Shown: positions 24,194 through 48,116 of the stretch, one piece after another
Position numbering within the stretch: the first letter of the stretch is position 1
How the letters are laid out: every line of letters begins with the position of its first letter
NCBI GenBank assembly: GCA_016938735.1
Contig: JAFGUB010000015.1
Location: 4,806 to 68,805, forward strand
DNA from: Campylobacterales bacterium
GTDB lineage: Bacteria > Campylobacterota > Campylobacteria > Campylobacterales > Sulfurimonadaceae
DNA length: 64,000 nucleotides
Direction of reading: 5' to 3'
Translations under genes and position numbers: made by a program
Notes under the pieces: model-generated
Seen by the model: only the letters and a program-made list of their open reading frames with translations
Told to the model about the DNA's origin: nothing
The model's database searches: none

Positions 24194-24345
24194 GGGATGC
24201 CTCCTAAAATAAGATAACCTCCTTAGAGCATTTCTTGTTCGCGCTTTTTTGCCCTGCAAACGGTAGCTTTTTGCATTTTGCGACAATTTTGTCGCTATAG
24301 GCTTACATGTAGAACACTATTTGCAATCAACCGCCTGAAATGCAA

Positions 24346-24403
24346 TCGTCGCCGCTTTTGGGTATGATATGCCAATTTATCCTATCTAAAGAGACGACGT
24401 GCC
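24346..24403 (+). promoter_or_regulatory. nuoA promoter/leader module (copy A of a duplicated ~80-bp element)
   Basis: TCGTCGCCGCTTTTGGGTATGATA contains a TATGAT -10-like box at 24363-24368. AAAGAGACGACGTGCC contains an RBS-like AAAGAGA plus the nuoA GTG at 24399. It is repeated at 38887-38944. Confidence 0.4.
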
Positions 24404-24758
24404 TTCGAACCTCCTGCTCGCCTCCGCCATCATTGCACTGCTGGTGATCGCCCTGCCGATTCTGTTTCACCTCACGCGCTACCTCGGCGCGCGTGAGGAC
24501 AACACCCGCAAAAACGAACCCTACGAGAGCGGCGTGCGCCTCACCCACCGCGACGCGTATGACAGCTTCAACATCCGTTTTTACACCGTAGGGATCATCT
24601 TTTTGCTTTTTGACGTGGAGGTGCTCTTTATGTTTCCGTGGGCGCTGAACCTGCGCGAGCTGGGGCTTTTTGCGATGATGGAGATGTTTGTCTTTATGGC
24701 TCTGCTCATTGCGGGGCTGATCTATGTCTATAAATCAAAGGTGCTCCAATGGACGTAA
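24399..24758 (+). CDS. nuoA: NADH-quinone oxidoreductase subunit A
   Basis: 119 aa from a GTG, with 3 TM helices and the NEPYESG block. Confidence 0.9.
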
Positions 24759-25279
24759 GTAACCATCTTTTAGGGGATGCCATCATCACCACACGCCTTG
24801 AGGCGGTGATCGACTGGGGACGTCAAAGCTCGCTTTGGCCGATGGTCTTTGACACGGCGTGCTGCGCCATCGAGTTTATGGCGGCGGCGGCGAGTCGCTA
24901 CGACGTTTCGCGTTTTGGGGCGGAGGTGCTGCGCTTCTCACCCCGCCAGGCCGATCTGCTGCTGGTTGCGGGCACCATCAGCTACAAGCAAGCCCCTATT
25001 TTGAAGATGATCTATGATCAGATGCCCCAGCCCAAATGGGTGATCGCTATGGGCGCGTGCGCTTCTAGCGGCGGCTTTTATGATAACTACACCACGCTTC
25101 AAGGCATTGACGAGATCGTCCCCGTGGATGTTTATATCGCAGGTTGTCCGCCGCGCCCCGAAGCGGTGCTCGATGCCATCGTGAAGATTCAGGAGAGTTT
25201 GTGGAAAGAGAGAGCGTGCGAAGAGCGCCACGCGGGGTTCAAGGGGCGGTTTGATGATGAGGCGCTAACTCAGCTCTAA
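24749..25279 (+). CDS. nuoB: NADH-quinone oxidoreductase subunit B
   Basis: 176 aa. Cluster N2 ligand blocks are [14 protein letters not shown] and GCPPRPE. It overlaps nuoA by 10 nt. Confidence 0.95.
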
Positions 25280-28200
25280 GGCGATCATCTCGGCCTGTTT
25301 GAGCACCGTTTCGGTCGCCAGTGCTTGCATGTCGGGCGGATAGCCGAACTGACGCAGCACCCTTTTGACGGCGATTTTGAGTTTTGCCCGTACGCTCTCT
25401 TTGATCGTCCAGTCGATGCTGGCATTTTCGCGCACCTTTTGGGTGAGCACCACGGCCAGCTCGCGCAGCACCTCTTTGCTCATCAGCTCTTTTGCACTCT
25501 CATTGTTTGCCACTGCCGTGTAAAAAGCGTACTCAAAATCCGTAAGGCCCAACTCACGCGGCTCTTGATCCATAGCCTGAATCTCTTTGCCGAGGTGGAT
25601 CAGCTCATCGATCACTTCCACCGCCGTGATGATTTTGTTGTGGTATCTTTTGATCGAATCTTCCAGCATCTGCATCAGCGATTTGCTTTGCACCAGATTG
25701 GTTTTTGATCTGGTTTTGATCTCGTCGCCCAGCAGTTTTTTGAGCACCTCAAGCGCGATATTTTTATGCTTCATATTTTTGACTTCCAGCAAAAACTCCT
25801 CTGAAAGTATCGAGATATCGGGCTTTTTGATCCCGCTTGCGTCAAAAATATCGATGACCTGCTCGGTGATGAGCGCTTTATCGATCACCTGACGAATCGT
25901 TGTCTCAATCTCTTCATCGCTTCGATCACCTGAGGGCTCAAACTTCACAAGACGCGCCTTGACGGCCTGAAAAAAGGCCACCTCGTCTTTGGCATCCATC
26001 GCCTGATCGTGCGGAATGGCGATGGCAAAGGCGCTTGAGAGCGCGTTTACCTCTTTGATGTACCTTTTTTTGCCCTCTTCGAGCCCTAAAATATGCTCTT
26101 CGGCTTCTAGTATCAGAGATAACTTTCCTCTTGTATCTTGCTCAAAGTAGTGCTCATACGCAAACCCGTGATACATCTGCGCAACGATTTCAAGTTTTTC
26201 CAGCATCAGCGCCACGGCCTTCTCCTGCGCCAGTGCGGGATCACCCCTGCCGCCGCTGTCGCTGTAAAACGAGAGCGCCGTTTTAAGATCGCTTGCAATG
26301 CCCAGATAGTCCACCACCAGCCCGCCCGGCTTGTCGCCATGCACCCGATTGACCCGCGCGATGGCCTGCATGAGGTTGTGCCCGCGCATGGGCTTGTCGA
26401 TGTAGAGCGTGTGCATTGAGGGCGCGTCAAAGCCCGTGAGCCACATATCGCGCACGATCACAAGGCGCAGCGGGTCATGATCGTCTTTCATGCGGCTCGC
26501 CAGGGCGCGTCTTTGCTCTTTGGTGGTGTGGTGTTTGGCCAGCGCCGCACCATCGGCACTGCTTGAGGTCATGATCACCTTGATGACCCCCTGACTCAAA
26601 TCATCGCTATGCCACGCAGGGCGCAGCGCGACAATCTCATCATACAGCGCAACGGCGATGCGGCGGCTCATGGAGACGATCATCCCCTTGCCCGCAAAGA
26701 CCTCCTGACGCAGTTCAAAGTGCGCGACGATATCGGCGGCGACCTCCTTGATGCGGTTGGCACTCCGATGAGGGCTTCTAGGCGCGTCCATTTCGCTTTA
26801 GCCTTCTGGCTCTCGTCTAGCTCCGATAGCTCCTCATCAAGCGCATGTACCAGCTCCTTGCCTTCCGCACTGAGGTTGATCTTTGCCAATCGGCTCTCGT
26901 AGTAGATCTTGACCGTTGCGCCGTCTTCGACCGCTTGGGCGATGTCGTAGATGTCCACATAATCCCCAAAGACCGCAGGCGTGTTGACGTCGCTGCTCTC
27001 AATCGGCGTGCCCGTAAACCCCAGATAGGTAGCATTGGGCAGGGCGTCGCGCAGATATTTGGCAAACCCGTAGGTGATCTCGCCCGTGTTTTTGTCTATT
27101 TTGGCGCGAAATCCGTACTGCGTGCGGTGGGCTTCATCGGCGATCACCACGATGTTGCGCCGATTTGAGAGCCGCTCATAGACGTTGCCCTCTTCAGGGG
27201 CGAACTTTTGAATGGTAGTGAAGATTACGCCGCCGCTTGCGACGCCCAGCTTCTCTTTGAGTTCGCTTCGCGTCTCGATCTGCACGGGTTCTTGTCTGAG
27301 CAGATTGGCGCAGCTTGCGAAGGTCTCAAAAAGCTGATCGTCGAGATCGTTTCTGTCGGTGATGACCAGCACGGTGGGGTTATCCAGCGCCAGAACGATT
27401 TTGCCCGTATAAAAGAGCATCGAAAGCGATTTGCCGCTCCCTTGCGTGTGCCATACGACCCCGCCTTTTTGATCTCCGCCTTCGCCGGCGGCTTTGAGCG
27501 TTCTCTCTACCGCTTTGTTGACGGCGTAGTATTGGTGATAGGCGGCGAGTTTTTTGACCGTCTCGATGGTGACGATGCCGTTTACATCCTCTTTTTTTGA
27601 TTGCTCAAAGACGATAAAACTACGCACCAGATCGAGCAGCACATGGGGCTGGAGCATCCCATTGATCAGGGTCTCTAGCTGCGGCGTCAGTCTGGAAACT
27701 TCGCTCACGCCGTCGCTGCTCTTCCACGCCATGTAGCGGCTAAGCCCCGCGCTGATTGTTCCCGCTTTGGCCTCGCAGCCGTCGCTGATGACACAAAAAG
27801 CGTTGTAGGTAAAGAGTGAGGGAATGAGCGATTTGTAGGTGCCGATCTGCTGGTGCGCGGAGGCGATGGTGGCGTTTTCGCCGGCGGCGTTTTTGAGCTC
27901 CATCACCACCAGCGGCAGACCGTTGACAAAAAGGATGATGTCGGGGCGTTTTTGATGGCCGTTTTCAATCATCGTGAATTGATTGACAACGACAAAATCA
28001 TTGCTATTCACATCGTCAAAATCTACCAGATGCACGATCTCGCCGCGCGTGATCCCCTCGCGCTGCACATCGACCTTGACCCCCTCCACCAAGAGCTTGT
28101 GAAAGGTCTCGTTGTCGCGCAGCAGTTCGCTTGATTTGATGCGCTCAAGTTGCTTGATGGCATCTTGCAGAGCGCTTACATGTAAGGAGGGGTTGATTTT

Positions 28201-28344
28201 TTCCAACGCGCCTAGCAGCCTCTCTTTGAGCAGAACCTCTTCATAGTTTCGCTCAAGATCGGGAGCGTACATGTAAGCGTAACCAAGCTGCTCAAAAAGC
28301 TCGATTGCGTAGAGTTCTATCTCATTTTCGGTGATTTTAGTCAT
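25265..28344 (-). pseudogene. hsdR: Type I restriction enzyme R subunit, split by a frameshift near 26760-26770
   Basis: The N-terminal ORF (26680..28359; likely start MTKITENEIE at 28344) has the DEAH box IADEAHRTQYG. The C-terminal ORF (25265..26791) has helicase motif [10 protein letters not shown]. The frames join as ...TRLEALIG / [13 protein letters not shown] with a 1-nt offset. Confidence 0.85.
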
Positions 28345-29288
28345 TTGTTCACTTCCCAATATCCGGATTTCAGGCTCCCGACTCTCTTGATAGCGCCTTC
28401 GTCTTTGAGCTTTTTGATCACTTTTTTGACCCCTGACTCGCTCATGGAGAGTTTCCCCATGAGCTCATTGATGGTAATGCGGCTGTTGTCTTTCATCAGT
28501 GCCAAAACTTTTTGATCACTTTTATAGTTACTTTTCTGGTCACTTTTGAGCGTATTGGCGATAGACTCCAAAATCATCTCAAGCATAAACTCGATAAACG
28601 GCGTGCTCTCTCCAAGAGCCGTGGACTCTTCTATGGCTTTATAGTACGCTTCTTGATGCTCCCTTACGATGCTTTCGGTCGGTAAAAGTGCAAAAATCGG
28701 ATTGAAGCTATGTAAAATCACACTTTGCCAAAGTCGCCCGATTCGACCGTTGCCGTCACCAAACGGATGAATAAACTCAAACTCATAGTGAAAGATGCAC
28801 GATTTCAAAAGCATATGCTCATCACTCGCTTTGAGCCATGCAAAAAGATCATCCATCAAATCATTTATCCTATTTGGCTGCGGGGCAATATGCGCTCCGA
28901 CGGATACATTGACGCTTCTAAACGTTCCTGCCGTCGTGAGTATCTCGCCCATCAAGATTTTATGTGCAAGCAACAGATCATTTAAGTCATCATACCTATA
29001 CGCTTCGAGTTTATCATAGGCTTTTATTGCGCCGTTGACTTCGGCAAGCTCTTTGAGTGTTCCTAAAACTCTTTTGCCATCCAAAATAGCGGTAATTTTT
29101 TCCTCACCCAGAAAATTACCCTCTATCTCCAAAGTACCCGCTAATGTTTTGATGCGGTTCTTTTTTCGTAGCATCGGGCTTACTTTTGTAGCGCCGCCAA
29201 CTTGAAGCTTGGTAAGTTCTTCACTGATTTGAGTAGAGAGTTTTAATATTTTTGAGGTTATTTTGTAGGGTGGGGTGTAGTTATTCAT
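28341..29288 (-). CDS. Fic family protein with C-terminal winged-helix domain
   Basis: 315 aa with Fic motif HPFGDGNGRIGR. The C-terminal block NSRITINELMGKLSMSESGVKKVIKKLKDEG is MarR-like. Its stop overlaps the hsdR ATG (ATGA). Confidence 0.85.
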   Translation of the reverse strand: MNNYTPPYKITSKILKLSTQISEELTKLQVGGATKVSPMLRKKNRIKTLAGTLEIEGNFLGEEKITAILDGKRVLGTLKELAEVNGAIKAYDKLEAYRYDDLNDLLLAHKILMGEILTTAGTFRSVNVSVGAHIAPQPNRINDLMDDLFAWLKASDEHMLLKSCIFHYEFEFIHPFGDGNGRIGRLWQSVILHSFNPIFALLPTESIVREHQEAYYKAIEESTALGESTPFIEFMLEMILESIANTLKSDQKSNYKSDQKVLALMKDNSRITINELMGKLSMSESGVKKVIKKLKDEGAIKRVGSLKSGYWEVNK

Positions 29289-30163
29289 TTTAGCCTCCCC
29301 AAAACGTCCAAAGCTCCCATCTCAAAGCGTGAAAACGCAAACCACTTTTTACCCAAGTCTTTCAAGCTTGCTCCGATATGGTAAATCTCTTGTTGGTCTA
29401 TGATCAAAAACCTATCATGAGCTTTTTTAAACTCTATGAGTTCTAGGTTTTGGTATTGCGCGCAGTACTTATGATAGTCAAGACGGAGCTGTTTTGAGAT
29501 GGTTTGCGTGTAGATTTTTATCTTTACATGTAAGTATTTGCTAAAGAGGGTAAAAACGGTGTCGTCTATGTAGTTGTCGATGAGCACCACTTCGTTTTTG
29601 GCACCCCCTAACAGCTCATTGACAAAAGCATACGCATCGTAAATCTGCCCGTCGTAGAAGATTCCATGTTTTGGTCGTATTGAGCTGTTTTCAAGGCCAT
29701 TTGAGATGTTTGCTACTTGTGATTTGAGTAGCGATACATCATTTTCTAGCTCTTTAAACCGTTCATGAGTGATTTTTTCGGAGTTGATGACATAGCCGTT
29801 TTGTACATAACTTGCGAGTACTGATGTTGCCCATTTTCTAAACTTTGTGGCGGTTATGGAATTAACTCTATAGCCGATAGAGATAATCATATCGAGGTTG
29901 TAATGCTCCAAGTTTCGCTCAACCATCCTATTACCTTCATTTTGAACTGTCAAGAAAAACTTGATAGTTGCGTCTTTGTCTAACTCATTGTCTTTGTATA
30001 TACGATTGACATGAAGGCTAATGTTTTGTTTTGTCACACCAAACAACTCGCCAAGTTGTTTTTGCGTCAGCCAAATAGTATTGTGGTTCACCGAAACATT
30101 CAGCTCTTGCTCACCGTCATTGTATATGACTACATTATGGCTTGGTATGGTTAGCTCATTCAT
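29285..30163 (-). CDS. RhuM-family protein
   Basis: 292 aa. LTQKQLGELFGVTKQNISLHVNRIY...ISIGYRVNSITATKFRKWAT is the RhuM signature region. It overlaps the Fic gene by 4 nt. Confidence 0.85.
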   Translation of the reverse strand: MNELTIPSHNVVIYNDGEQELNVSVNHNTIWLTQKQLGELFGVTKQNISLHVNRIYKDNELDKDATIKFFLTVQNEGNRMVERNLEHYNLDMIISIGYRVNSITATKFRKWATSVLASYVQNGYVINSEKITHERFKELENDVSLLKSQVANISNGLENSSIRPKHGIFYDGQIYDAYAFVNELLGGAKNEVVLIDNYIDDTVFTLFSKYLHVKIKIYTQTISKQLRLDYHKYCAQYQNLELIEFKKAHDRFLIIDQQEIYHIGASLKDLGKKWFAFSRFEMGALDVLGRLK

Positions 30164-30205
30164 CGCTTGCCTTTGGTTTGGTCATTTTAGGCTACCTTGC
30201 TTTGC

Positions 30206-30237
30206 TTACATGTAACGAAAGAAAAGCTTACATGTAA
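30206..30237. repeat. Two TTACATGTAA copies 22 bp apart (CTTACATGTAAC ... CTTACATGTAAT)
   Basis: Exact 10-mers at 30206-30215 and 30228-30237. They lie in the gap between rhuM and the AT-rich block. Confidence 0.95.
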
Positions 30238-30268
30238 TGCGGGGTTTGAATGATTGGTGGTGGTCATA

Positions 30269-30802
30269 TTATTTCCTGACTCCGTTTTCCTTGTCATCAA
30301 ATAAGCTTCTTTGATGTTCTTCTACCCATTTTTGATATTTTCGTTTTTTTCCAGCTTCTCGAAGTTTCAGTTTCCCGAGCTCTAGTTCTTGTGTTCCAAA
30401 TACTTGTAGCAGTCTATAACTTCTACTTTTCTCATCGCCAAATTCATCAAAAGTAATTTTTATTTCGAGATGGCAATTTATCAATGAACCATTAGAAAAT
30501 TTATGCTTTCCTTCAATAACCTCTTGTTTGAATTTTGAATCCGCCATACTAAAATCAATTTTTTCATTTTTGTATCTACCTCTCCAGTTATATTTCCCCT
30601 CTTTCAAAACTGGTGAAATTATTTCTATCATGGCATCGTCATCTTCTGACATAGTTGTGTCATCATGCAAAATAAAGCTTTTAAAATCTTTTCTCTCAAC
30701 TATATATTCATCTGCATCATCCTCTAAACTTCTATACCCTATCTTTTCTACTTTTTCATAAGCATCAATTTTTTTGTAAAAGTTTGAAATATATTTTTGC
30801 AC
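30269..30802 (-). CDS. Hypothetical protein (177 aa), very low GC
   Basis: Clean ORF in the AT-rich block downstream of the RloC-like gene. Lys/Glu-rich. No family recognised. Confidence 0.5.
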   Translation of the reverse strand: MQKYISNFYKKIDAYEKVEKIGYRSLEDDADEYIVERKDFKSFILHDDTTMSEDDDAMIEIISPVLKEGKYNWRGRYKNEKIDFSMADSKFKQEVIEGKHKFSNGSLINCHLEIKITFDEFGDEKSRSYRLLQVFGTQELELGKLKLREAGKKRKYQKWVEEHQRSLFDDKENGVRK

Positions 30803-30835
30803 GAGTTTATCATTGAGCTTTTTCTCTATTTGTTC

Positions 30836-31192
30836 TTATAGCTCTAAAGTTTTTTGTTGATTGTCTAACTCTAAATTTTGAAGTGTTGCTTCTTTGATTT
30901 TTTTATCTAAGGCTTCTGCTTGAGTATTTCTAGTAGCATAGTGAGTGATAATATCATTCAAAGCAGGTGATAAATAATGCAATGTAGGCAATACAATAGC
31001 CAATATTTCAATTAATCCGCCCTCTTGATAAGCTTCCGTTTCGATTTTTAACTCACTGTCTAAAAGCTCACCTATCCTTTTGACTGCTTCAAGAAAATCT
31101 TTTTCAGCCTTATTTCTCACAAAAGCATTCATAGCATGTGAGTTATCTTTTAGGTAATAATGAAGTTCAAATTTTTGAGTTAAGTTATTCAT
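30836..31192 (-). CDS. Hypothetical helical protein (118 aa), very low GC
   Basis: The start MNNLTQ at 31192 overlaps the RloC-like stop by 8 nt (ATGAATAA). The C-terminus is predicted helical/coiled. No family recognised. Confidence 0.5.
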   Translation of the reverse strand: MNNLTQKFELHYYLKDNSHAMNAFVRNKAEKDFLEAVKRIGELLDSELKIETEAYQEGGLIEILAIVLPTLHYLSPALNDIITHYATRNTQAEALDKKIKEATLQNLELDNQQKTLEL

Positions 31193-33380
31193 TAATAACT
31201 CCAATTTCAATATTCATCATTTTATTAAAATGTTTGATATTGCCTGATTCTTCAAAAATTTGTTTAAATGCTTCTTTAAATAAACTTACATCTATTTCTT
31301 TAACATCTGATATATTTATTTGGTCAGAATGAGACTCTCTATCAATGTATCTTAAAAAAGCACCGTATTTTATAGAATCAAGTTTATTTACTGATTCTTT
31401 CATCTTTTCATTGTCAATAAATCCAAAAAAATTCTCAAGTATATTTCGCATTGCATTTGCCAAAATATTGTCATGAGCGTTTCCATTTTCATGGTCTTTG
31501 AGTATTTTCCAATAAGCCTGATAATCATTTTGTATTTCATCTTGTAGCATTTCTAAAATTAAAGAAGATTTATCATTGCCTCTAACTATTCTAAAAAGCT
31601 TTTTATCCTTTTTATTGTGTATCTTACAAAGCTCATGAAAAAAATACATGCTATGAGTTAGTACAAAAACTTGTAAATAATTTTGACTTTCAAAAAATTC
31701 TTTTTTTGTAAGTTGTGCAACATTAAAAATATAATTATGCGATAAGCTTGATATTGGATCATCTATTACAACAATTTTATTTTTAATCTCTTCTGTTTCG
31801 CTTTCTTTTCCTTTGCAAAGTTCCACAAAGTAAAGAAAGCTTATTATCATTTTTTCACCTTCGCTTAACGATTTAAATTCTGGTTTACTTTCATTCTCCC
31901 TTACAATTCTGTAAAACTTATCTTCAAAAGGCTTTATCTCAAAACCATGCAACCCAAGCAAGGCTAATTGATAGTTAATTAATTCTATAACTTTTTCAAT
32001 ATTGATTGTTTTATCTTGATTTTCTTTGATAACATCTCTTTGAGCTTTTATATCATCTTTGATTTTTTGAAGTGCTAAATTTACCTTTGCTTCTTCTTTT
32101 TCTAAATCTTTTAAATCTTTTTCATATGACGAAATATGTACATCGTACTCCCATCTCATTATTTCCCAAAATTCTTTCTTTATAATCTCTTTAACATTTT
32201 TTTTATTTTTTATTTTTTCATTATGCTGCGTCATTTCTTGATTGATTTTTTCTACAAGTTCATTAAAGTTTTTCAATGCTTGACTAGAACCTTGAAGAGT
32301 CACTTTATTGCTTGGAAGTTTTATTTTATTGTCGATTGCAGTTATATTTTGAGATAAAACTGTAAGCAGTTTTGTATGTAAGCTTTCAAGTTCTATTTTT
32401 ACAGCATTTACATAATCATTTACTAAAAATGAGTCTATAGATGGAATATTATTTTTGATTGTCTCATATTTAGATTTTATTCCTTTCAATAAATTAATCT
32501 TATCCTCGTAAGTTTTATCAAAGTAGTTTTTTATCTCATCAGCTAAATTTTTTGTAACAGTTTCTTGTTGACAAAATGGGCAACTTGTGGCTTCATTTAT
32601 CTCATCTGGTAAATAGCCTAGACCCAGTTTTACCCAATCAGAATTTTGAAATTTTTCTATTAAACTTGCAACTGTACTATCTTTATTTCCTACAATAACT
32701 TCATCAAAAATACTGTTGTTTTCAAGTTCAATTACGCCACTTAAAACAATTTTTTGGAGAGGGTCTAAACTAATAGCATCATCACCTTCAATTTTTGAAA
32801 TCTCTTTTTTTAAATCATCTGTTGTTTTTGTAGGTTTAGTCAATGGCTTTACTAATGATTTAATATGATTAAATAGTGCATCTTTACTGCCTTTAACACC
32901 TTCTAAACAATAATCTAAAATTCTATCTCCACCGCTAAAGGTTGTTTTTATATTCCATATTTTTTCAGTCGCTTCTGACAATTTCTTTTTTTTCTTGCCA
33001 TTAGCTCCGTTTATTTCGTCTAGTTCTATTTTTTTTGCTTTTTCTTGAGTTTCTAATTTGTCAATTTCAGCTTTTGCATTTTTTACATTTTCTTCTGCTG
33101 TAACATTTGGCTCTGATATTGTAAAAACACCTTTTAAATCTTCTTTTTCATAAAAGTTTTCATTAATAAATTCTTGATTGTACACCAGTATTTTTGCTGT
33201 TTCTCCACCAGAAATTGAACAATCATTAAATTTACTATTGTTTTTATTTTTTAAAAAGTTTGATAAAGTTGTTTTTCCTGTTCCGTTTAGTCCATAAACA
33301 AGGTTTATTTTTTTATCTGTATTGAGTGTTCTTTCGCTTCTATAACTAGCGACATTTTTTAGTTTTATTAAAGTAATCAT
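31185..33380 (-). CDS. RloC/PrrC-like ABC-type ATPase (AAA_13 architecture), putative anticodon nuclease
   Basis: 731 aa with Walker A GLNGTGKTT and a long Lys/Glu-rich coiled-coil insert carrying CPFCQQ (zinc-hook-like CxxC). ABC signature SLSEGEK, Walker B IVVIDDPISSLS and H-loop VLTHS follow. The C-terminal R-x3-E (RNILENF) plus ESHSD resemble the PrrC nuclease triad. The gene is embedded in an hsd locus. Confidence 0.7.
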   Translation of the reverse strand: MITLIKLKNVASYRSERTLNTDKKINLVYGLNGTGKTTLSNFLKNKNNSKFNDCSISGGETAKILVYNQEFINENFYEKEDLKGVFTISEPNVTAEENVKNAKAEIDKLETQEKAKKIELDEINGANGKKKKKLSEATEKIWNIKTTFSGGDRILDYCLEGVKGSKDALFNHIKSLVKPLTKPTKTTDDLKKEISKIEGDDAISLDPLQKIVLSGVIELENNSIFDEVIVGNKDSTVASLIEKFQNSDWVKLGLGYLPDEINEATSCPFCQQETVTKNLADEIKNYFDKTYEDKINLLKGIKSKYETIKNNIPSIDSFLVNDYVNAVKIELESLHTKLLTVLSQNITAIDNKIKLPSNKVTLQGSSQALKNFNELVEKINQEMTQHNEKIKNKKNVKEIIKKEFWEIMRWEYDVHISSYEKDLKDLEKEEAKVNLALQKIKDDIKAQRDVIKENQDKTINIEKVIELINYQLALLGLHGFEIKPFEDKFYRIVRENESKPEFKSLSEGEKMIISFLYFVELCKGKESETEEIKNKIVVIDDPISSLSHNYIFNVAQLTKKEFFESQNYLQVFVLTHSMYFFHELCKIHNKKDKKLFRIVRGNDKSSLILEMLQDEIQNDYQAYWKILKDHENGNAHDNILANAMRNILENFFGFIDNEKMKESVNKLDSIKYGAFLRYIDRESHSDQINISDVKEIDVSLFKEAFKQIFEESGNIKHFNKMMNIEIGVINE

Positions 33381-34552
33381 ATCTCCACCCTTGCTTCCCC
33401 ACTCAACAGCTTTGGCAAGAGTGTATCTCGCAAGTTTTCAAGGGTTTGGATTTGTTTCGTATTGCTTTCTATTTTTGTGAAATATGGTTTCATCTCTTCT
33501 TCAAATTCCTTTACTGTTTTTTCATTCGGTAGAGTGATATTGTGTTCTTGGAATGTCTTTGTAGTAATAGTATCAAAAACACTGCCGTATGCAGCGGCTT
33601 GGAGCTCTTCCACTGAGTGTGAAATCAAAAGATATGTGAAAAAATAGCAGTCCTTAAATTTCGGCAAAACACCATAATTTGACTGGCTAAACGCCATAGG
33701 CTCCGCGAGTAAGCAATATTTCCCCACTGTTCCTCTAGCACTAATCACTGTGGCATATTTTGGTAAAAGCTTTGCCGAACTTTTTTCTAATCCCGTCTGT
33801 GTAATTGTTTTTTCTGTTTTGTGAATAAAACCTTTGTGATGCGAAGATATATCTCCTCCTGCCAACCATCCAATGCTCCCATCCCAATATTCCGCAACCG
33901 TAGTTTTTGGTGTACCCCCACCAACAAGAATAATGCTATCAAAAAGGCTTTGATCCTCCCACTCCTCTTTTGCTTCTTCGATAAACCATTGTCTAAAAAG
34001 CGTTTGGGCGAGGGATTCTAGGGTGTGGTTTTGGCGATGGAGAAGGTCTATCTTATCATCGAGGCTACTTAATACTTCTGCTATTGCTTTTTGTTCTTCA
34101 AGAGGTGGAAGGGAAATATCAATTTCATCAAATGTTGTTCTTGTTATGGTGTCAAATACTCCACCGTGAGATATTTGTATTAATTGATTTACTGTATCTT
34201 TTAAAAGGTAAAAAATATAATCATTTGTAGATTCATTTTCTTTTGCTCTAACTCCGTAACAAGATTGATTAAAAGTCATAGGTTTATCAAGCATTGCTAA
34301 AGCTCCAACAGTTCCACGAGCTGAAATGATTATGTCATTTTCTTGAAGTAGTTTTGTACTACTGTTTTTAAGTCCTTCTTCTGTTATAGTTTTTTCAGTT
34401 TTTGAAACATATTTTTTGCCAGTGTTAAAATCTACAACTGAAAGCCAAGGGATATCTCCATTCCAATATTCAGAAATAGCAGTTTTAGGAGTTCCACCTC
34501 CAATAATTTCTATTACCTCCCCCAACTTACACTCTCTCCAACTACTCATCAC
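33377..34552 (-). CDS. hsdS: Type I restriction-modification specificity subunit
   Basis: 391 aa. It has two target-recognition halves, each with GGGTPKT...ISARGTVG blocks, separated by conserved helical spacers. Confidence 0.85.
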   Translation of the reverse strand: MMSSWRECKLGEVIEIIGGGTPKTAISEYWNGDIPWLSVVDFNTGKKYVSKTEKTITEEGLKNSSTKLLQENDIIISARGTVGALAMLDKPMTFNQSCYGVRAKENESTNDYIFYLLKDTVNQLIQISHGGVFDTITRTTFDEIDISLPPLEEQKAIAEVLSSLDDKIDLLHRQNHTLESLAQTLFRQWFIEEAKEEWEDQSLFDSIILVGGGTPKTTVAEYWDGSIGWLAGGDISSHHKGFIHKTEKTITQTGLEKSSAKLLPKYATVISARGTVGKYCLLAEPMAFSQSNYGVLPKFKDCYFFTYLLISHSVEELQAAAYGSVFDTITTKTFQEHNITLPNEKTVKEFEEEMKPYFTKIESNTKQIQTLENLRDTLLPKLLSGEARVEI

Positions 34553-35234
34553 TCACCGCCTTTCTCACCCGCTCCATCAGCCCGAAGCTCTGCTCTTCTA
34601 GTAGTGAAAATGCAAACCACTTTTTGCCAAGGTCTTTGAGGGTTGATTCGTCGATATAGTTGTCTATAAGAACGATTGAACTTTTGGCTTTTTTGACAAG
34701 CTCACTCACGAGTGCATACGCATCAAAAATCTGCCCGTCGAAAAAGACGCCCTGTTTGGGGGTGGTGGATCTATTTTCAAGTGCATTTAGCACCGATTCT
34801 AGCTTTTGATTGGTCTGTTTTTGGTCTAGTTCAAGTTTTTCTACTCTTTGAAAAAGTGAAGCGTTCTGGAGGAGGTACTTGCGCATCTTGACGAAACTGT
34901 TGATGATATTGATGCTGGTTTGGATTGCCGTATCGCTTCGCAAGACTGCCGAGAGCATAGATACGCCTTGTTCGGTGAAGACATAAGGCAAAGCTGACGA
35001 ATGCTTGAGAGGTTGCAACCGGTCGCAATTTGCGACCAGTTCATTTTTTTCACTTTCATTTAACTGAAATCTAAACTCCTCGGGGAATCTCTCAATATTT
35101 CTTTTGACCTGTTCACCAAGTCTTTTTGGCTCCACACCGTACAGCTCCGCCAAATCTCTATCGATCATTACTTGCACACCGCGAATCGTAAAGATTTTGT
35201 GTTCGATGTTTTGCTGTATGCTCATTTCACTCAT
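34542..35234 (-). CDS. ORF6N (KilA-N-like) domain protein with truncated RhuM-type C-terminal module
   Basis: From MSEMSIQQNIEHKIFTIRGVQVMIDRDLAELYGVEPKRLGEQVKRN (ORF6N signature). The C-terminus matches the RhuM paralog tail but carries an internal deletion. Confidence 0.7.
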   Translation of the reverse strand: MSEMSIQQNIEHKIFTIRGVQVMIDRDLAELYGVEPKRLGEQVKRNIERFPEEFRFQLNESEKNELVANCDRLQPLKHSSALPYVFTEQGVSMLSAVLRSDTAIQTSINIINSFVKMRKYLLQNASLFQRVEKLELDQKQTNQKLESVLNALENRSTTPKQGVFFDGQIFDAYALVSELVKKAKSSIVLIDNYIDESTLKDLGKKWFAFSLLEEQSFGLMERVRKAVSDE

Positions 35235-36306
35235 CACCCACCCCCTCAAAATCATCTTCTAATTCCGCTTCTATTTGTTCCATGCTAGGAAGTGAGGATT
35301 GATACTCTTTGGGCAAGATCTCCATGAGTTCATATTCACTGACGCCTAAAGGCTTGTTGACATCTTTGAGCGCATACTCTACCACTACATTGTTTTTTGA
35401 TTTACAGATAAGTATGCCTATGGTCGGGTTGTCATTTTGATCTTTTAGCTCACCGTCGATTGCGCTCGTATAAAAGCTCAATTTTCCGGCAAACTCAAGC
35501 TTAAACTCACTCACTTTTAGCTCTACCACTACATAACATTTGAGCTTGATGTGATAAAAAAGCAAATCGATCCTAAACTCATCACCGCCAACGACAAGCT
35601 TATATTGTCTGCCGACAAAGGCAAATCCACTTCCAAGCTCTAGTAAAAACTTTGTAATGTTCTCTGTCAAAGCGTTTTCCAGCTCTCTCTCTTGATAGCC
35701 TTGCGTGAGGGTCAAGAAATCAAAGTTATAGGGATCTTTTGTGATCTCTTTTGCCAAGTCCGATTGAAGCGGTGGAAGTGTAGCCTCAAAGTTTGTGATA
35801 GCTTTGCCCTCTCTGGCGTAAAGATTTGTCTCTATTTGATGAATGAGCACATTTCTGCTGATACCGTTTTTGATGGTGTTTTGCACATAATAGAGAGCTT
35901 CTTGGGTGCTTTTGCACTTTTGGATGATGGCGATATTGTGCCCCCAAGGGATTTGTAAAACTTGCGAAACAACTTGTTTCGTATTTGTAACTTCCATTTG
36001 CGAAACAACTTGTTTCCAAAATAGATACCACTTTCTGATCAACTCTAAATTTCTTTTTGAAAACCCTTTTATATCTGGAAACTCTGCACTTAAGTCCTTG
36101 CTTAGTTGTTGCAAAAATCCGCTTCCCCAAGTGCTACTTTTTTGCTTTTCTACTATTTTACTTCCAAGATTCCAATAAAACTCCAGTAAAGCGCTATTTA
36201 TCTGTATGGAGGCTTTTATTTGCGAGCTTTGAAACCTTTGTTTTATCTCATTTAGCCACTCTTTATATTCTGTATTCAAAGAATTTTGAAGTTGTGTATT
36301 ACTCAT
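35227..36306 (-). CDS. YhcG/DUF1016-family PD-(D/E)XK nuclease-like protein
   Basis: From MSNTQLQ at 36306. The C-terminal block FRIDLLFYHIKLKCYVVVELKV has the D...ExK pattern. Confidence 0.75.
   Translation of the reverse strand: MSNTQLQNSLNTEYKEWLNEIKQRFQSSQIKASIQINSALLEFYWNLGSKIVEKQKSSTWGSGFLQQLSKDLSAEFPDIKGFSKRNLELIRKWYLFWKQVVSQMEVTNTKQVVSQVLQIPWGHNIAIIQKCKSTQEALYYVQNTIKNGISRNVLIHQIETNLYAREGKAITNFEATLPPLQSDLAKEITKDPYNFDFLTLTQGYQERELENALTENITKFLLELGSGFAFVGRQYKLVVGGDEFRIDLLFYHIKLKCYVVVELKVSEFKLEFAGKLSFYTSAIDGELKDQNDNPTIGILICKSKNNVVVEYALKDVNKPLGVSEYELMEILPKEYQSSLPSMEQIEAELEDDFEGVGDE
35962..36016. repeat. In-frame 36-bp tandem duplication carrying two GAAACAA-C-TTGTTTC hairpin-capable units
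   Basis: TTGCGAAACAACTTGTTTC occurs at 35962-35980 and again at 35998-36016. In the protein it encodes QVVSQ...QVVSQ. Confidence 0.8.
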
Positions 36307-37300
36307 CACCCACCGCCTCAAGGAGTCTTTGAAACTCTTCTTTGTTGGGCAGTACGGTGAGATATTTGCTGGCAAATATTTGGTTGTTGTCTCGTGGAAG
36401 GGTCATCTCTACAAGGGCTTTACTTTTGTCTTTGCACAAGATAATGCCCACCGTCGGGGCTTCGTCCTCTTGTTTTTCGACGCGGTCAAAGTAGTTGACA
36501 TACATCATCATCTGCCCGATGTCTTGATGTTTGAGTTCACCGATTTTGAGGTCTATGAGGACAAAACAATGCAAAAGGCGATTGTAAAATACCAAATCCA
36601 CCGCAAAGTGCTTTTCATCGATAGTAAGGCGTTTTTGTCTGGCGACAAAAGTAAAGCCTTTGCCAAGCTCCAGCAAAAATGCCTCTAGCTTATCGATGAG
36701 CTTTTGTTCTAAGTCGCTCTCAGAGTAGCTTGATAGCACGGGAAGTCCCACAAATTCGAGTATGTACGGGTCTTTTATGAGGTCTTGCACGGTTTCGATG
36801 ATATGCCCTTTTTGCGAAAGCTCTTTGACTTTTGTTTTGTCGATACTCAGGCTTAGCCGCTCATACAGCCCTGTGTCAAACTGCCTTTTGAGCTCTTTGA
36901 GCGTCCAGCCATTTTGTGCAGATTCTACCTCATAAAAATTTCGCTCATCTTCGCCGGTTATGCGAGACAAAAAGATGTAGTGGGAGTAGCTGAGGCTAAA
37001 TTGGTGAGACGCCGTCTCACTTTTTGAATAAGCCAAATAAAACCGTCTCATATTTTTGAGGTTATCTATTGAAAATCCACTGCCAAACTCCCTTGTAAGC
37101 TCATGTGAGAGATTTTTGATCAGCCCTTTGCCATACTCCGCCCTAGCTTCTCCGCCCTGCTCCTCTTCAACAATGCGCCGTCCTATCTCCCAGTAGGTTT
37201 GGGTCATGGTGGTATTGATGGTTTGGTAGATGCTGTTTCTGGCTTTTTGGAGAAGCTCTTTGATATCCGATACAAAATGGGTGTTTGAAAGATTACTCAT
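36299..37300 (-). CDS. YhcG/DUF1016-family PD-(D/E)XK nuclease-like protein
   Basis: 333 aa with N-terminal [30 protein letters not shown]...[14 protein letters not shown] and C-terminal [26 protein letters not shown]. Confidence 0.8.
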
Positions 37301-38813
37301 CCCCCACCGCCAAATTCACCTTCGCCAAATTTGCCAAAATACGCTCATTGAGCGCTTGTTCTTCCCTCATCTGCTCTTGAAGCGTTACATGTAAAGACTC
37401 AAACCGCTCTTTGAAATCAAACTCATCTTCCACATCTTCAAGCCCCACGTAGCGCCCGGGCGTGAGTACATAGTTAAGCTCTCGCACCTCTTGAAGGCTT
37501 GCGCTTTTGCAAAAGCCTTTGATGTCCTCATAGCGCACACTTTTGACCTTCCACTCATGATAGGTCTGCGCGATTTTGTCGGTATCTTTGGGGCTTAGCT
37601 CTTTAGTGCGGCGGTTGATGAGATGGCCCAGATTGCGCGCATCGATGAAGAGTATATCTTGCGTGGTGCGTCCGCGTTTCATAAACCAGAGCGAAGCGGG
37701 AATCTGGGTGTTGAGAAAGAGCTTTGCGGGCAGGTTCACGATGCAGTCAACAAGATTGGCCTCAATCAGCGCCTTGCGGATCTCCCCTTCGCCGCTGGTG
37801 TTGCTCGTGAGGCTCCCTTTTGCCAGAACAAACCCCGCCGTGCCTGTGGGTGCGAGGTGATACAAAAAGTGCTGTATCCACGCATAGTTGGCGTTGCCCG
37901 CAGGCGGTGCGCCGTATTGCCATCGGCCATCACTGCGCAGCAGCTCGCCGCTCCAGTCAGAGACGTTAAAGGGCGGATTGGCGATGATGAAGTCCGCTTT
38001 GAGGTCTTTGTGGGCATCGCTTAAAAATGAGCCTTCGTTGTTCCATTTAACCTGGCTAGAGTCGATGCCGCGAATGGCAAGGTTCATGCGGGCCAGCCGC
38101 CATGTGGTCTGGTTGGACTCTTGGCCGTAGATGGAGATGTCGTTGATGCGCCCTTGATGCTCCAGCACAAACTTTTCGCTCTGCACAAACATCCCGCCGC
38201 TGCCGCAACAGGGGTCAAACACGCGCCCCTTGTAAGGTTCTAGCATCTTCACCAGCAGTTCTACAACGCTTTTGGGCGTGTAAAACTGACCGCCCTGTTT
38301 GCCCTCGGCCAGCGCAAATTCACCCAGAAAATACTCAAACACATGCCCCAGCACATCAGCGCTGCGCGCTTTGGCATCACCCAGCGCGATATTGCCGATC
38401 AGATCGATCAGCCCGCCAAGCGCCTTGGCATCAAGATTGTCGCGGGCGTAGACCTTGGGCAGCACCCCTTTGAGCGTCGCGTTTTCACGCTCGATGGCGT
38501 CCATCGCTTCATCAACGAGCTTGCCGATGTGGGGGAGCTTGGCGCTGCCTTGCAGGGTGCTCCAGCGCGCGTTTTGCGGCACAAAAAAGACGTTTTCGGC
38601 GGCGTATTCGTCTTTGTCTTCGGGGTCGGCACCCTGATCAATCTGTGAGCGCAGCGTTACATGTAAAGCTTCAAAACTATCAGAGATGTATTTAAGAAAA
38701 ACCAGCCCCAGCACGACATGCTTGTATTCGGCGGCGTCGATGTTTTTGCGCAGCTTGTCGGCGGCTTTCCAAAGGGCGGTTTCAAGGGATTCTAGCGAAG
38801 CGGATTTGGCCAT
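37293..38813 (-). CDS. hsdM: Type I restriction-modification methyltransferase subunit
   Basis: From [22 protein letters not shown] (ATG at 38813). SAM motif DPCCGSGGM and catalytic NPPFN are present. The track ORF extension to 39017 crosses the promoter repeat and the nuoC start and is rejected. Confidence 0.9.
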
Positions 38814-38886
38814 AAGAGATGTTTCCGTGTGTGTTTTTGAAGCATAGATTGTAGCCAAAAGTTGATCCCCACACCTTGAAATCCAT

Positions 38887-38944
38887 TCGTCGCGGCTTTT
38901 GGGTATGATAGTGGCAATTTTTACCGACAAAGAGACGACGTGCC
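38887..38944 (+). promoter_or_regulatory. Copy B of the nuoA promoter/leader module, placed in front of nuoC
   Basis: TCGTCGCGGCTTTTGGGTATGATA has 1 mismatch to copy A, with TATGAT at 38904-38909. AAAGAGACGACGTGCC is exact. The GTG at 38940 opens an 11-codon remnant, [11 protein letters not shown], whose TGA overlaps the nuoC ATG (ATGA). Confidence 0.45.
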
Positions 38945-38971
38945 CCAAAATCTCCCGATACGGATTGATGG

Positions 38972-39208
38972 ATGAGTGAAGTACCCTACAGCGATCTTTT
39001 TGCCCACGCACAGTCACTCAAAAGCGAAGGCTACACCCTCCTACTCGACATCGTAGGCATCGATTACCTCTACCTGCCGCGCAAAGAAGCCAAGCGTTTT
39101 GGGGTGATCTACCATCTGCGCCATGGGGATTTCGACCGTGTGGTTTCTTTACATGTAAGCGTGAACGAAGATGAGCCGATAAGTAGCCTGTCCCCTTTAT
39201 TTAGATAA
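38972..39208 (+). pseudogene. nuoC: nuoC 5' fragment, terminated by a TAA created inside a tandem duplication
   Basis: The 78 codons encode a NuoC-like N-terminus (LLLDIVGIDYL...YHL). The stop at 39206-39208 lies in the duplicated copy of GATAAGTAGCC... Confidence 0.75.
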
Positions 39209-39241
39209 GTAGCCTGTCCCCTTTATTTGTCCCCTTTATTT
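39178..39241 (+). repeat. Nested tandem duplication (25 nt + A + 25 nt + 13 nt) inside nuoC
   Basis: GATAAGTAGCCTGTCCCCTTTATTT occurs at 39178-39202 and 39204-39228, followed by GTCCCCTTTATTT at 39229-39241. The net insertion is 39 nt, which is in frame. Confidence 0.9.
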
Positions 39242-40624
39242 GAGAGTGCGGATTGGTTGGAGCGGGAGGTGTTTGATCAGTTTGGGCTGCGTTTTAGCGG
39301 CCATCCCAACCTCAAACGTGTGCTCAACCATGAGGAGTTTATCGGCCATCCGCTGCGCAAAGATTATGCCATTACCAAAGGCCAATACTGCACCCAGACT
39401 CAGGATTTGATGGATGAGATGGCGCCGCTGCTTACATGTAAGCATCTGGATATGGAGCGTGACAACCTTATGCTGCTCAACCTCGGCCCCTCACACCCCG
39501 CCAGCCACGGCACGCTGCGCACCCTTGTGGCGCTTGACGGCGAAGAGATCAAGGCGGGGGTGAGCGAGATCGGCTATCTGCACCGGGGCTTTGAGAAGTC
39601 GTGCGAAAACCACACCTATAACCAGATCGTCCCCTACACCGACCGGCTCAACTACTGCTCGGCGCTCATGAACAACATCGGTTTTTGCAAGGCGGTAGAG
39701 GAGATGATGGGCATCAAGCTGCCGGATCGTGGGATCTTTATCCGTGTGATCCTAAGTGAGCTTTCGCGCATTATCGACCACCTCGTCTGCCTCGCGGCGG
39801 GGCTGCTGGATATGGGGGCGCAGACCAACTACTGGTACCTCTTCAACCCGCGCGGGCTGGCCTATGACTTTCTCAGCCGCCTTACGGGGGCGCGGCTCAC
39901 CAACTCTTTTATGCGCATCGGCGGCATGGCGCACGATCTGCACGCGGGGTGGGAAGCGGAGCTAGAAAGCGTGCTGCGCTCGGTCGAGAGTGGCGTGGAT
40001 GAGAGCCTGCGCATGAGTGAGCACAACCGCATTTTTATCGACCGAACCCAAAATGTCTCGTGTGTGAGTGGGGAGCGGGCAGTGAACATGGGCTGGAGCG
40101 GCCCCAATCTACGTGCGTGCGGCGTCGCGTACGATCTACGTTTTGCCGCGCCTTATGACTACTACGACACCTTTGATTTTTCGATGGTCGTAGGCTCTTC
40201 GGGGGACACCTATGATCGGCTGATGGTGCGCTTTGAAGAGATCAAAGAGAGCCTCAGCATCATTCGTCAGGCCATAAAACGCATCCCTCAAGGAGCGGTC
40301 AGCGTTGCCGATCACGCCGTGACGCTGCCTAGCAAAAGCGCCGTTTATGGCACGATTGAAGGGGCGATGAATCAGTTTAAACTTATCTTCGAGGGGGTCA
40401 AAGTGCCCAAAGGAACCCACTACGGCGCCACCGAAGCGGCCAACGGCGAGCTGGGATTTACCATCATCAGTGATGGCAGCGGCACGCCCTACCGCGTGAA
40501 AGTCCGTGCGCCCAGTTTCATCCACATGGCAAGCTACCCCAAGATCATCGAAGGAAGCCAAATCGGCGATGCTATTTTGACACTTGGAAGCCTCAATATC
40601 ATTGCCGGGGAGATGGATCGATAA
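39227..40624 (+). CDS. nuoD: NuoC C-terminal part fused to NuoD (NuoCD), downstream of the duplication
   Basis: The 465-aa ORF uses TTG in the track. [18 protein letters not shown] is the NuoC core. After a linker, [14 protein letters not shown] onward is full-length NuoD. Confidence 0.85.
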
Positions 40625-41094
40625 TGTTTACCTTTACGCCCCAAAACCTCCAAAAGATCGAAGCGCTAAAAAGCCGCTACCCCTCCCCCAACGCCCTAGC
40701 CCTGCCGCTGCTGTGGATGGTGCAGGAGCAAGAGGGCACTATCAGCCTAGAGGCGATGGAGGCCGCCGCCCCCTTTTGCGACCTACCCCCCATCGAACTC
40801 TACCGCATCGCCACCTTTTACACGATGTTCAAGCTCGCCCCCACAGGCCGCCACCACATACAGCTGTGCAAAACCCTCTCGTGTGCTCTGTGCGGCAAAG
40901 CGGAGATTTTGGCGCATCTGCAAGAGCGCCTCGGCATCGGTGTGGGCGAGATGACTCCCGATGGGCGCTTTAGCCTGGAGCAGGTGGAGTGCTTGGGCTC
41001 CTGCGGCACCGCGCCCGTGATGCAGATCAACGACGTCAATTTTGAAAACCTCACCCCCAAAAAGATTGATGAGATTTTAAAGGCACTGTCATGA
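40624..41094 (+). CDS. nuoE: NADH-quinone oxidoreductase subunit E
   Basis: 156 aa. The 2Fe-2S cysteines lie in CKTLSCALCG...CLGSCGTAPV. Confidence 0.9.
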   Translation: MFTFTPQNLQKIEALKSRYPSPNALALPLLWMVQEQEGTISLEAMEAAAPFCDLPPIELYRIATFYTMFKLAPTGRHHIQLCKTLSCALCGKAEILAHLQERLGIGVGEMTPDGRFSLEQVECLGSCGTAPVMQINDVNFENLTPKKIDEILKALS

Positions 41095-43591: not shown

Positions 43592-43658
43592 CGCAGCACT
43601 GCCCTCAGACCCTGCAAAGCGATCTGAACACGCTTGAAGCTTATCTCAAGGCGCTCTT

Positions 43659-44954: not shown

Positions 44955-45448
44955 AAATCCGCGTCGTGCAGCGCCACGGAACTGCGCTGAAAGACCGACT
45001 CTACCTCCCCGCCATCTGGCAAGGGCTCAAGATCACCGCCACGCATCTGCTCAAAAACGTCGGCGACATCAAAAGCGTCGATGTGCTCGAATACCCCGAA
45101 GAGCAGCCCAGCGACATCACCAACCGCTACCGTGGGCTGCACCGCCTCACGCACCGAGAAGACGGCAGCGTACGCTGCGTGGCGTGTTACATGTGCGCCA
45201 CGGCCTGCCCGGCGGGCTGTATCTTTATCGAGGCCGCAGAACGTACCGACGGCGTCGATGAGAAGATGCCTTCTCGTTTTGCCATCGATACGCTCGAATG
45301 CGTCTTTTGCGGCTACTGCGTCGAAGCCTGCCCCTGTGACGCCATCCGCATGGACACCGGAATTTTCTCGCTGATCGGCTCACGGCGTGAGGATTTTGTG
45401 CTCGAAAAAGAGCAACTACTCGCCCATAAAGGAGCCTTTGATGAGTGA
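44951..45448 (+). CDS. nuoI: NADH-quinone oxidoreductase subunit I
   Basis: The ATG overlaps the nuoH stop (ATGA). There are two ferredoxin motifs, CVACYMCATACP and CVFCGYCVEACP. Confidence 0.9.
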   Translation: MKIRVVQRHGTALKDRLYLPAIWQGLKITATHLLKNVGDIKSVDVLEYPEEQPSDITNRYRGLHRLTHREDGSVRCVACYMCATACPAGCIFIEAAERTDGVDEKMPSRFAIDTLECVFCGYCVEACPCDAIRMDTGIFSLIGSRREDFVLEKEQLLAHKGAFDE

Positions 45449-45947: not shown

Positions 45948-46251
45948 GCCCGCTGCACTTTTTACTCCTTGGCACCCTGCTCTTTGGCATCGGTCTGGTG
46001 GGTGTGATCGCCAGACGCAATCTCTTTGTGGTCTATATGTCCATCGAACTGATGCTCAGCGCCGTCAATCTGCTGCTCGCCACCTTTTCGCGCATTCGCG
46101 GCGATGAGGGCGGCGCGGTGCTCTCACTGCTGCTGATTGCCGTGATTGCGGCTGAAGCGGCGATCTTTTTAGCGATGATCATTGCTCTGTTTCGCGCCAA
46201 ACGCAGCATCGACGCGCACGACTTTACGCAGCTTTCTCAGGAGCACAACGC

Positions 46252-46255
<4 letters not shown>
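45944..46255 (+). CDS. nuoK: NADH-quinone oxidoreductase subunit K
   Basis: 103 aa with 3 TM helices and a conserved Glu in the helices (SIELML, AAEAA). Confidence 0.9.

Positions 46256-48116
<1,861 letters not shown>

Follow-up and report, generated by a model that had tools for sequence, protein, structure and literature searches.

An insertion into an operon should silence the genes downstream of it, and the locus described here raises the question of how a 14-gene respiratory operon could survive one. In the 64-kb window that we analysed (the whole stretch of contig JAFGUB010000015.1 numbered here, from a Campylobacterales bacterium of the Sulfurimonadaceae), the complex I genes nuoA (24399..24758, plus strand, with a GTG start; Pfam Oxidored_q4, E = 9.8e-30; N-terminus in line with relatives' nuoA starts) and nuoB (24749..25279, plus strand; Pfam Oxidored_q6) are parted from the rest of the nuo operon by a Type I restriction–modification (R-M) and defence island. 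This island is 13.7 kb long (25262..38875) and sits exactly at the nuoB/nuoC junction, with all of its genes on the minus strand, antisense to nuo. Directly in front of nuoC lies a second copy of the nuoA promoter region. Our reading, which we hold to be probable, is that a segment made up of the nuoA promoter, nuoA and nuoB (P-nuoAB) was duplicated and then deleted internally, that the promoter copy thereby placed before nuoC (copy B) drives nuoC-N, and that a short open reading frame (ORF) behind it, the mini-ORF, is coupled to nuoC.

The repeat itself is clear. An earlier note on this DNA had described two near-perfect blocks shared by the regions upstream of nuoA and nuoC, set within roughly 80% identity interrupted by small indels, and both blocks were found exactly where it had placed them, each occurring twice in the window: TCGTCGC[C/G]GCTTTTGGGTATGATA at 24346-24369 and 38887-38910 (2 matches with up to three mismatches allowed, against 0.00 expected), and AAAGAGACGACGTGCC at 24388-24403 and 38929-38944 (2 matches with up to two mismatches allowed, against 0.03 expected). 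A repeat search returned a 34-nucleotide (nt) direct repeat of 91% identity (24336-24369 / 38877-38910), followed by a diverged 18-nt spacer and then the exact 16-nt block; since both lie at the same offset of 14541, there is no net indel between them. Identity between the copies is 51/68 over 24336-24403 without gaps and 81% over 82 columns with gaps, close to the figure first estimated by eye. Local alignment of the nuoA upstream region with the spacer between hsdM and nuoC scored 82, compared with 17.4 +/- 2.1 (maximum 25) for 300 shuffles. Tested alone, neither the sequence upstream of 24335/38876, that is, beyond -41 (p = 0.68), nor codons 2-6 of copy B against copy A (p = 0.70) showed significant similarity.

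Copy A (24335..24403, plus strand), delimited by the repeat and by conservation in relatives, is the native nuoA promoter with its 5' module and consists of (C)TGAAAT (24335-24341), TCGTCGC (24346-24352), a -10 element TATGAT (24363-24368) inside TTTGGGTATGAT, a putative transcription start site (TSS) at about 24375-24377, and the ribosome-binding site (RBS) and start block at 24388-24403. Copy B (38876..38955, plus strand), delimited by the repeat and the alignment, has the same parts in the same order: TTGAAAT (38876-38882), TCGTCGC (38887-38893), TATGAT (38904-38909), a putative TSS at about 38916-38918, the RBS/start block (38929-38944) and the remains of nuoA codons 1-6. Two contigs of the independent Logan assembly of run SRR13394436 (L001 and L002) are 100% identical to window positions 14749-25502 and 37975-46973, so that neither the two island junctions nor copy B can be an artefact of a single assembler. 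The suggestion that recombination between the two repeats could delete the intervening segment is speculation; such an event would remove nuoAB.

What did the operon look like before the island? A genome-collection scan with NuoCD recovered 80 loci, every one belonging to Campylobacterota (Sulfurovum, Sulfurimonadaceae, Sulfurospirillum and others; best 87% identical); 76 of them have upstream sequence that is informative, and in 73 of these nuoA-nuoB-nuoCD-nuoE are contiguous. A further NuoCD search returned nothing between 87% and 100% identity, and its E-value cut-off would hide truncated proteins; closer relatives were found through members of the NuoA cluster (NuoA and NuoB together about 96-97% identical as protein and 89-90% as DNA). 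Two of these, the loci L090 and L086/L087, are island-free. Comparison of the nuoB-nuoC spacer in such relatives had been proposed in the earlier note, and here the two genes overlap (GATGACTGA) with no promoter-like element between them: in L090 and L086, nuoB ends GGG CGG TTT GAT GAC TGA, nuoC begins at the embedded ATG (ATGACTGAA), and the island-free junction reads GGGCGGTTTGATGACTGA. These relatives show that the ancestral order was promoter-nuoA-nuoB-nuoCD, in which the nuoC start and the nuoB stop overlapped. The split, the island and copy B are therefore derived, and the split and copy B co-occur with the island, which supports the proposal of a split operon with a promoter copy set before its distal genes.

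The relatives also identify the repeated element. A module TTGAAATGCAATCGTnnnnGCTTTTGGGTATGATATGCCAATTT...AAAG(A/T)GACGACGTG lies upstream of nuoA in 12/12 close-relative loci (L083-L094). Between L086 and L090, which have different genes further upstream, homology starts exactly at TTGAAAT, as does the similarity between copies A and B. The architecture TGAAA-N5-TCGT-N13-TAnnnT is kept upstream of nuoA even in two loci with 84-85% NuoA identity (L003 and L005), where the remainder has diverged. In the window and in 1.35 Mb of related loci this architecture was otherwise found only at nuoA and at copy B, bar one AT-rich match in L071 that is probably due to chance. By this conservation copy A is the orthologous nuoA promoter region, and copy B is the sole copy of the module away from nuoA in the window and about 1.35 Mb of related loci; the full module at nuoA and copy B only is what a duplication predicts, as had been claimed, rather than a generic promoter module. 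A scan of JGI metagenomes with the pattern GAAATSCAWTCGTNNNNGCTTTTGGGTATGATA gave 0 matches.

A comparison is offered by the cave genomes of Sulfurovum sp. FS08-3 and AS07-7, in which nuo is also split: nuoA (L097/L100) stands alone between DJ-1/PfpI and diacylglycerol kinase genes, and nuoCD (L018/L013) is the first gene of another cluster, preceded by a conserved region particular to it (...CCCCTTTTTTGATATGATTAGC...). In these strains the sequences upstream of nuoA and nuoCD are unrelated (score 20 vs 18.7 +/- 2), so promoter sharing is not general to split nuo loci. We considered these strains as a second natural case and rejected them on that ground; they serve instead as a negative control.

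How old is copy B? It shares 81% identity with copy A and 84% with the L090 and L086 copies, compared with 87-92% among the orthologous copies themselves. About five ancestral states are retained in copy B where copy A has changed, next to about nine private changes plus indels, and its codons 2-6 (GTG-CCCCAAAATCTCC) lie nearer to those of the relatives' nuoA (GTGACCCCAAACCTCC). Given these identities and retained states, the duplication is, by alignment, not a recent one; copy B is apparently old or derived from a related lineage. In total copy B carries about 15 substitutions and 2 indels, and these spare both the 16-nt RBS/GTG block and the 16-nt -10 block, which does not vary among the five sequences compared; the spacer between the two has drifted. 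This pattern is at most suggestive of continued selection on promoter and start-site function, with the caveat that the blocks were defined from the same data.

The other end of the P-nuoAB segment, too, is found again right of the island. The 3' tail of nuoB at the left junction, CGGTTTGATGATGAG (25247..25261, plus strand; the island starts at 25262), recurs just before nuoC as CGGATTGATGGATGAG (38961..38976, plus strand), with one substitution and one extra G (15 nt; score 11 vs 5.15 +/- 1.09 for shuffles, p = 0.0006), and each copy ends exactly at its own junction. The insert is thus flanked by short direct repeats (CGGTTTGATGATGAG, CGGATTGATGGATGAG) of the kind expected of a target duplication or attachment (att) site, and no recombinase is found with them. 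Beyond the left junction nuoB now runs into the island: its final six codons (EALTQL) are new, giving a convergent 15-nt overlap with the 3' end of hsdR, where relatives' NuoB ends RFDD*/KLDD*.

These two ends meet in the 11-codon mini-ORF (38940..38975, plus strand), which, exactly as the earlier note had it, opens at the GTG at 38940 and closes with a TGA (38973-38975) overlapping the nuoC ATG as ATGA (38972-38975). Its head, GTG CCC CAA AAT CTC CCG, is that of nuoA and is nearer to the relatives' GTG ACC CCA AAC CTC CTG than to copy A; its middle is a filler of 3-5 nt (ATA in the codon reading); and its tail, CGG ATT GAT GGA TGA, is that of nuoB, for which relatives have R-F-D-D-stop. Since the duplicated nuoB 3' end closes it, the mini-ORF is a nuoA'-'nuoB fusion. 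The idea of a leader peptide derived from nuoA is thereby extended, the end of the ORF being the nuoB 3' tail. Both ends of P-nuoA-nuoB (the promoter from about -41 to about six nuoA codons, and the nuoB tail) are found to the right of the island with order and orientation kept.

Can copy B act as a promoter? In both copies the -10 hexamer TATGAT, of the form TAnnnT, stands 30 nt upstream of the GTG. Its context TTTGGnTAnnAT is enriched, with 4 matches in the window where 0.3 would be expected; they precede a serS-like gene, nuoA, the minus-strand hsdM and the mini-ORF, in every case at a distance of 30-34 nt from the start codon. Copy B holds the sole plus-strand match in the 158-nt spacer between hsdM and nuoC. 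With every island gene antisense, nuoC is not reached from any island promoter, and there is no co-directional gene upstream of nuoC for 13.7 kb. Copy B is accordingly a predicted promoter for nuoC-N, and its TSS, strength and coupling are likewise predictions. We also considered two other kinds of control and rejected both. A structured RNA leader or riboswitch is contradicted by the lack of any Rfam match at gathering score over 24000-39400 and by folds no more stable than those of shuffled leaders (z = -0.37 for copy B, +0.79 for copy A). A sigma-54 reading, with GG-N10-GC around the -10, has a spacing that on inspection fits copy B only.

Translation of nuoC appears to have changed as well. 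In relatives a Shine–Dalgarno (SD)-like AAGGGG for nuoC lies inside nuoB; it is lost in the window, where the energy of the duplex between the nuoC leader and the anti-SD sequence is -5.6 kcal/mol, compared with -9.2 kcal/mol in L090/L086 and -3.8 +/- 2.9 for random 22-mers. There is no alternative in-frame start upstream of nuoC, a TGA standing at 38966-38968, and the ATGA overlap is of the kind associated with translational coupling. With its SD lost, nuoC probably depends on coupling to the mini-ORF.

The nuoC-nuoD gene that follows is a fusion (38972..40624, plus strand; 538 codons without the insert described here). Tandem duplications of 26 nt (perfect) and 13 nt within nuoC (39178-39242; 39 nt extra) keep the frame and introduce an in-frame TAA (39206-39208), so that the gene is read as two ORFs, 38972-39208 (78 amino acids) and 39227-40624 (465 amino acids, TTG start), with the Complex1_30kDa domain split across them and Complex1_49kDa also present. 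The same 39-nt duplication with its TAA is present in Logan contig L002, from the same run. A pseudogene, a split gene and a population variant are all conceivable; this population may have an impaired complex I, or else the TTG at 39227 may serve as a restart site for translation. Beyond nuoC-nuoD the ORFs of nuoE-N are intact and encode the Pfam domains expected of them. NuoCD of the window is 0.818 identical to the outgroup L003, vs 0.803 and 0.818 for the island-free relatives; there is no rate acceleration, and the distal genes, to judge by this, are therefore ones expressed for most of the lineage's history.

These observations can be assembled into a model. The island would have arrived with the duplication of the P-nuoAB segment, or at the join it created, and the redundant second nuoA-nuoB would later have been deleted internally, leaving the promoter and the 11-codon nuoA'-'nuoB mini-ORF. 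Copy B retains the nuo-specific upstream element TGAAAT-N4-TCGT together with the -10, by which the two half-operons would stay co-regulated. Ribosomes would load at the nuoA-derived start, translate the mini-ORF, stop at the TGA within ATGA and re-initiate at nuoC, and this coupling would substitute for the AAGGGG formerly supplied inside nuoB.

Several observations weigh against this reading. A scan for the sigma-70 consensus (TTGACA-16/18-TATAAT) found 0 sites at either copy, and the TTGAAA that is present lies 22 nt upstream of the -10, not at canonical -35 spacing. Promoters of Campylobacterota often lack a -35 element; the canonical scan being empty, the promoter assignment rests on the lineage-specific -10 context and its conservation. 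The RBS of nuoA and the mini-ORF pairs weakly with the anti-SD sequence (-3.4 kcal/mol, at the level of random sequence), the native nuoA RBS being identical. The in-frame TAA in nuoC may impair the distal operon of this particular genome. An internal deletion is one of several routes to the present structure, and its in-frame joint has a 1/3 chance of arising at random. Finally, the orthologous copies resemble copy B at least as closely as copy A does, which fits an old duplication and an import from a related strain equally well.

Such an import is an alternative that we think unlikely. Here the island itself would have carried copy B: in a donor with an R-M island adjoining nuoA and hsdM divergent from it, a fragment with the hsdR stop at one end and nuoA codon 6 at the other would have been inserted at nuoB/nuoC with a 15-nt target duplication, making copy B a xenologous nuoA promoter with the same present function. 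The near-equal distance of copy B from copy A (81%) and from L090/L086 (84%) and its five or so orthologue-like states fit such a history; the host-like G+C content (GC) of hsdR and hsdM suggests a donor of the same GC-rich lineage, and the nuoB-tail repeats flank the whole insert as a target duplication would. The donor arrangement of hsdM beside nuoA was, however, not found: nuoA of close relatives is preceded by a GGDEF gene and a 51-amino-acid ORF, or by YqeY, and none of 80 metagenome loci encoding HsdM (best relative 85% identical) contained nuo genes. Nor does the island hold an integrase or transposase that could have made the 15-nt target duplication.

It is more improbable still that copy B is an inert fossil, with nuoC-N either silent as complex I decays or transcribed by read-through or from some other start. 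The in-frame TAA in nuoC, reproduced in the independent assembly, the frameshift in hsdR and the failure to find a canonical -35/-10 promoter would all sit well with this reading, but nuoE-N are intact with their expected Pfam domains, NuoCD has not accelerated relative to island-free relatives, the roughly 15 substitutions and 2 indels of copy B spare the -10 and RBS/GTG blocks, and the 13.7 kb upstream of nuoC hold no co-directional gene. Convergence, whereby a shared regulatory motif or a generic promoter consensus arose twice, we regard as barely credible. The context TTTGGnTAnnAT is indeed a general promoter context here, found also at the serS-like gene and hsdM, and in relatives (L084, L018) a T-rich stretch followed by TATGAT stands before other genes. 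The identity at issue nevertheless runs for about 70 nt, includes non-consensus positions, reaches through the start codon into the first codons, and has the nuoB tail behind it; the full module is confined to nuoA and copy B, and the independently split nuo loci of Sulfurovum FS08-3 lack upstream similarity altogether. Alignment statistics (z about 30) effectively refute it. The duplication and internal deletion of P-nuoAB thus remains the reading that we prefer.

The island that divides the operon encodes HsdR, HsdM and HsdS domains together, as a Type I R-M system does. From the nuoB side (all minus strand, Pfam assignments), it comprises hsdR (HSDR_N, SWI2_SNF2, T1RH-like_C), split by a frameshift into a C-terminal ORF (25265-26791) and an N-terminal ORF (26680-28359); Fic (28341-29288); a RhuM-like gene (29285-30163); an AAA_13 ATPase (31185-33380); hsdS (33377-34549; two copies of Methylase_S); ORF6N (34542-35234); two DUF1016/YhcG genes (35227-36306 and 36299-37300); and hsdM (37293-38813; HsdM_N, N6_Mtase), for which a motif search finds a -10-like element, TTTGGCTACAAT, at 38848-38859 (minus strand). 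Two further island ORFs, between the RhuM-like gene and AAA_13 and also on the minus strand, have no Pfam match. A distance of 3 nt separates the hsdR stop codon from the nuoB junction, and the frameshift (overlap 26680-26791) could be a real pseudogene or a consensus error. GC in the island core (about 28.5-37 kb) is 26-45%, vs about 51-57% in the flanks. Pfam detected no integrase, transposase or recombinase domains among the island proteins, only Hsd, Fic, RhuM, ORF6N, DUF1016 and AAA_13, and a terminator scan found none 3' of nuoB. The island junction motif GATGAGTGAA resembles the nuoC start, but the two lie on opposite strands; microhomology as the cause of insertion was rejected and the likeness treated as coincidence.

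Within the island, the genes between hsdM and hsdS show a pattern of their own. A sequence of about 16 nt, GCGGTGGGTGATGAGT, is common to four successive minus-strand junctions at about 37300, 36306, 35234 and 34549 (hsdM/DUF1016, DUF1016/DUF1016, DUF1016/ORF6N and ORF6N/hsdS), at each of which the upstream protein ends (A/G)V(G/S)DE* and the downstream gene starts with an overlapping ATGAGT (M-S). The cargo between hsdM and hsdS appears to have been inserted as cassettes, each rebuilding the hsdM/hsdS stop/start overlap, a theme of junction duplication like that at nuoB/nuoC. In the 3' parts of the RhuM-like and ORF6N genes, two DNA segments, of 47 and 90 nt, are 74-81% identical (29329-29702 / 34604-34788), which suggests a common C-terminal domain or possible recombination among island cargo genes.

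Two observations concern the nuoB/nuoC junction elsewhere. The Logan locus L084 (SRR23905919; 1150-2261) is about 98% identical to the island-free L090 across nuoAB, and in it nuoB is followed by a 14-18-codon nuoC remnant (MIECTCNNLLVHIE...), a T-rich/TATGAT promoter-like sequence and an AAA_21/AAA_15 ATPase gene; compared with L090, it shows that the junction is polymorphic for different islands with different boundaries. A NuoC N-terminus search for the right-hand junction of this lineage returned the query itself as the sole match. The palindrome TTACATGTAA occurs 32 times in the 64 kb, against 0.04 expected (about 800-fold), within an extended consensus GC-TTACATGTAA-GC, and is found within and between genes at about 0.5 per kb (e.g. 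2890, 6115, 24303 with 9/10 bases, 38657, 39149 and 39432). It is present in L003, L005, L024-L026, L054, L055, L065, L086 and L090; some relatives, several Sulfurospirillum loci among them, have it at a density like that of the window, but 72/100 loci lack it. In relatives the nuoC 5' end, exactly where the island junction falls, carries the palindrome. A motif of the uptake-signal-like or methylation-related kind is possible; searching the literature brought up nothing relevant.

The different island by which L084 departs from L090, the four hsdM/hsdS-type junctions and the palindrome at the nuoC 5' end together invite a broader reading, in which the nuoB/nuoC junction is a recurrent landing site for defence cargo that repairs itself, duplicative entry reproducing the junction and, if required, the operon's 5' control module. 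We consider this unlikely; if it were true, islands could enter essential, translationally coupled operons without polar damage.

As an island, the locus resembles others of its kind. The hsd loci of Campylobacter jejuni carry 'rlo' genes as intervening cargo, and here, as in Campylobacterota Type I R-M loci with cargo, hsdR-hsdS-hsdM are interspersed with other genes (Fic, RhuM/ORF6N, DUF1016 and AAA_13). It differs in lying inside an essential respiratory operon, and in that its cargo genes repeat the hsdM/hsdS junction sequence. As a junction, it resembles the ancestral termination-reinitiation at nuoB/nuoC, the mini-ORF stop overlapping the nuoC ATG as the relatives' nuoB does (ATGACTGA), except that the upstream cistron is now an 11-codon chimeric remnant, the SD internal to nuoB is gone and coupling is predicted.

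Operon evolution offers a second comparison. In 'The Life-Cycle of Operons', Price, Arkin and Alm (2006; PMC1480536) found pairs from split operons to show stronger co-expression than random pairs, and energy-production operons essentially never to die (31 surviving vs 0 dead). The present locus is like the operon death by insertion described there, in that foreign genes interrupt an ancestral operon whose halves remain close. Unlike the cases in that tally, it is a complex I operon that has been split here, and a copy of its original promoter could preserve co-expression. Promoter duplication is not mentioned in that paper, in the text of which neither 'duplicat...' nor 'new promoter' occurs.

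The closest parallel is promoter capture, in which experimental duplication or deletion activates promoter-less or transferred genes in E. coli (PMC6614815, PMC11111574); the citT duplication of the long-term evolution experiment, as cited in PMC6614815, is a further example. The likeness is that a rearrangement sets an existing native promoter before genes without a usable one: there are two homologous copies, one at the ancestral site and the other before genes lacking a promoter, and the route usually taken there is duplication and subsequent deletion, the joints having short homology or none. The differences are that this capture is natural and apparently old (copies about 19% diverged); that the promoter captured is the operon's own, by which co-regulation of the halves would be preserved; that a translation start and a stop/start overlap were kept too, as a chimeric 11-codon leader; and that the activity of copy B is predicted from its sequence. 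Three findings extend the earlier reading: the leader is a nuoA'-'nuoB chimera, nuoC has lost its SD, and there are relatives without the island. The locus is a well-resolved natural case of promoter capture, with relatives that retain the pre-insertion state, rather than a new class of element, and it provides a testable model of how defence islands colonise essential operons and why split operons stay co-expressed.

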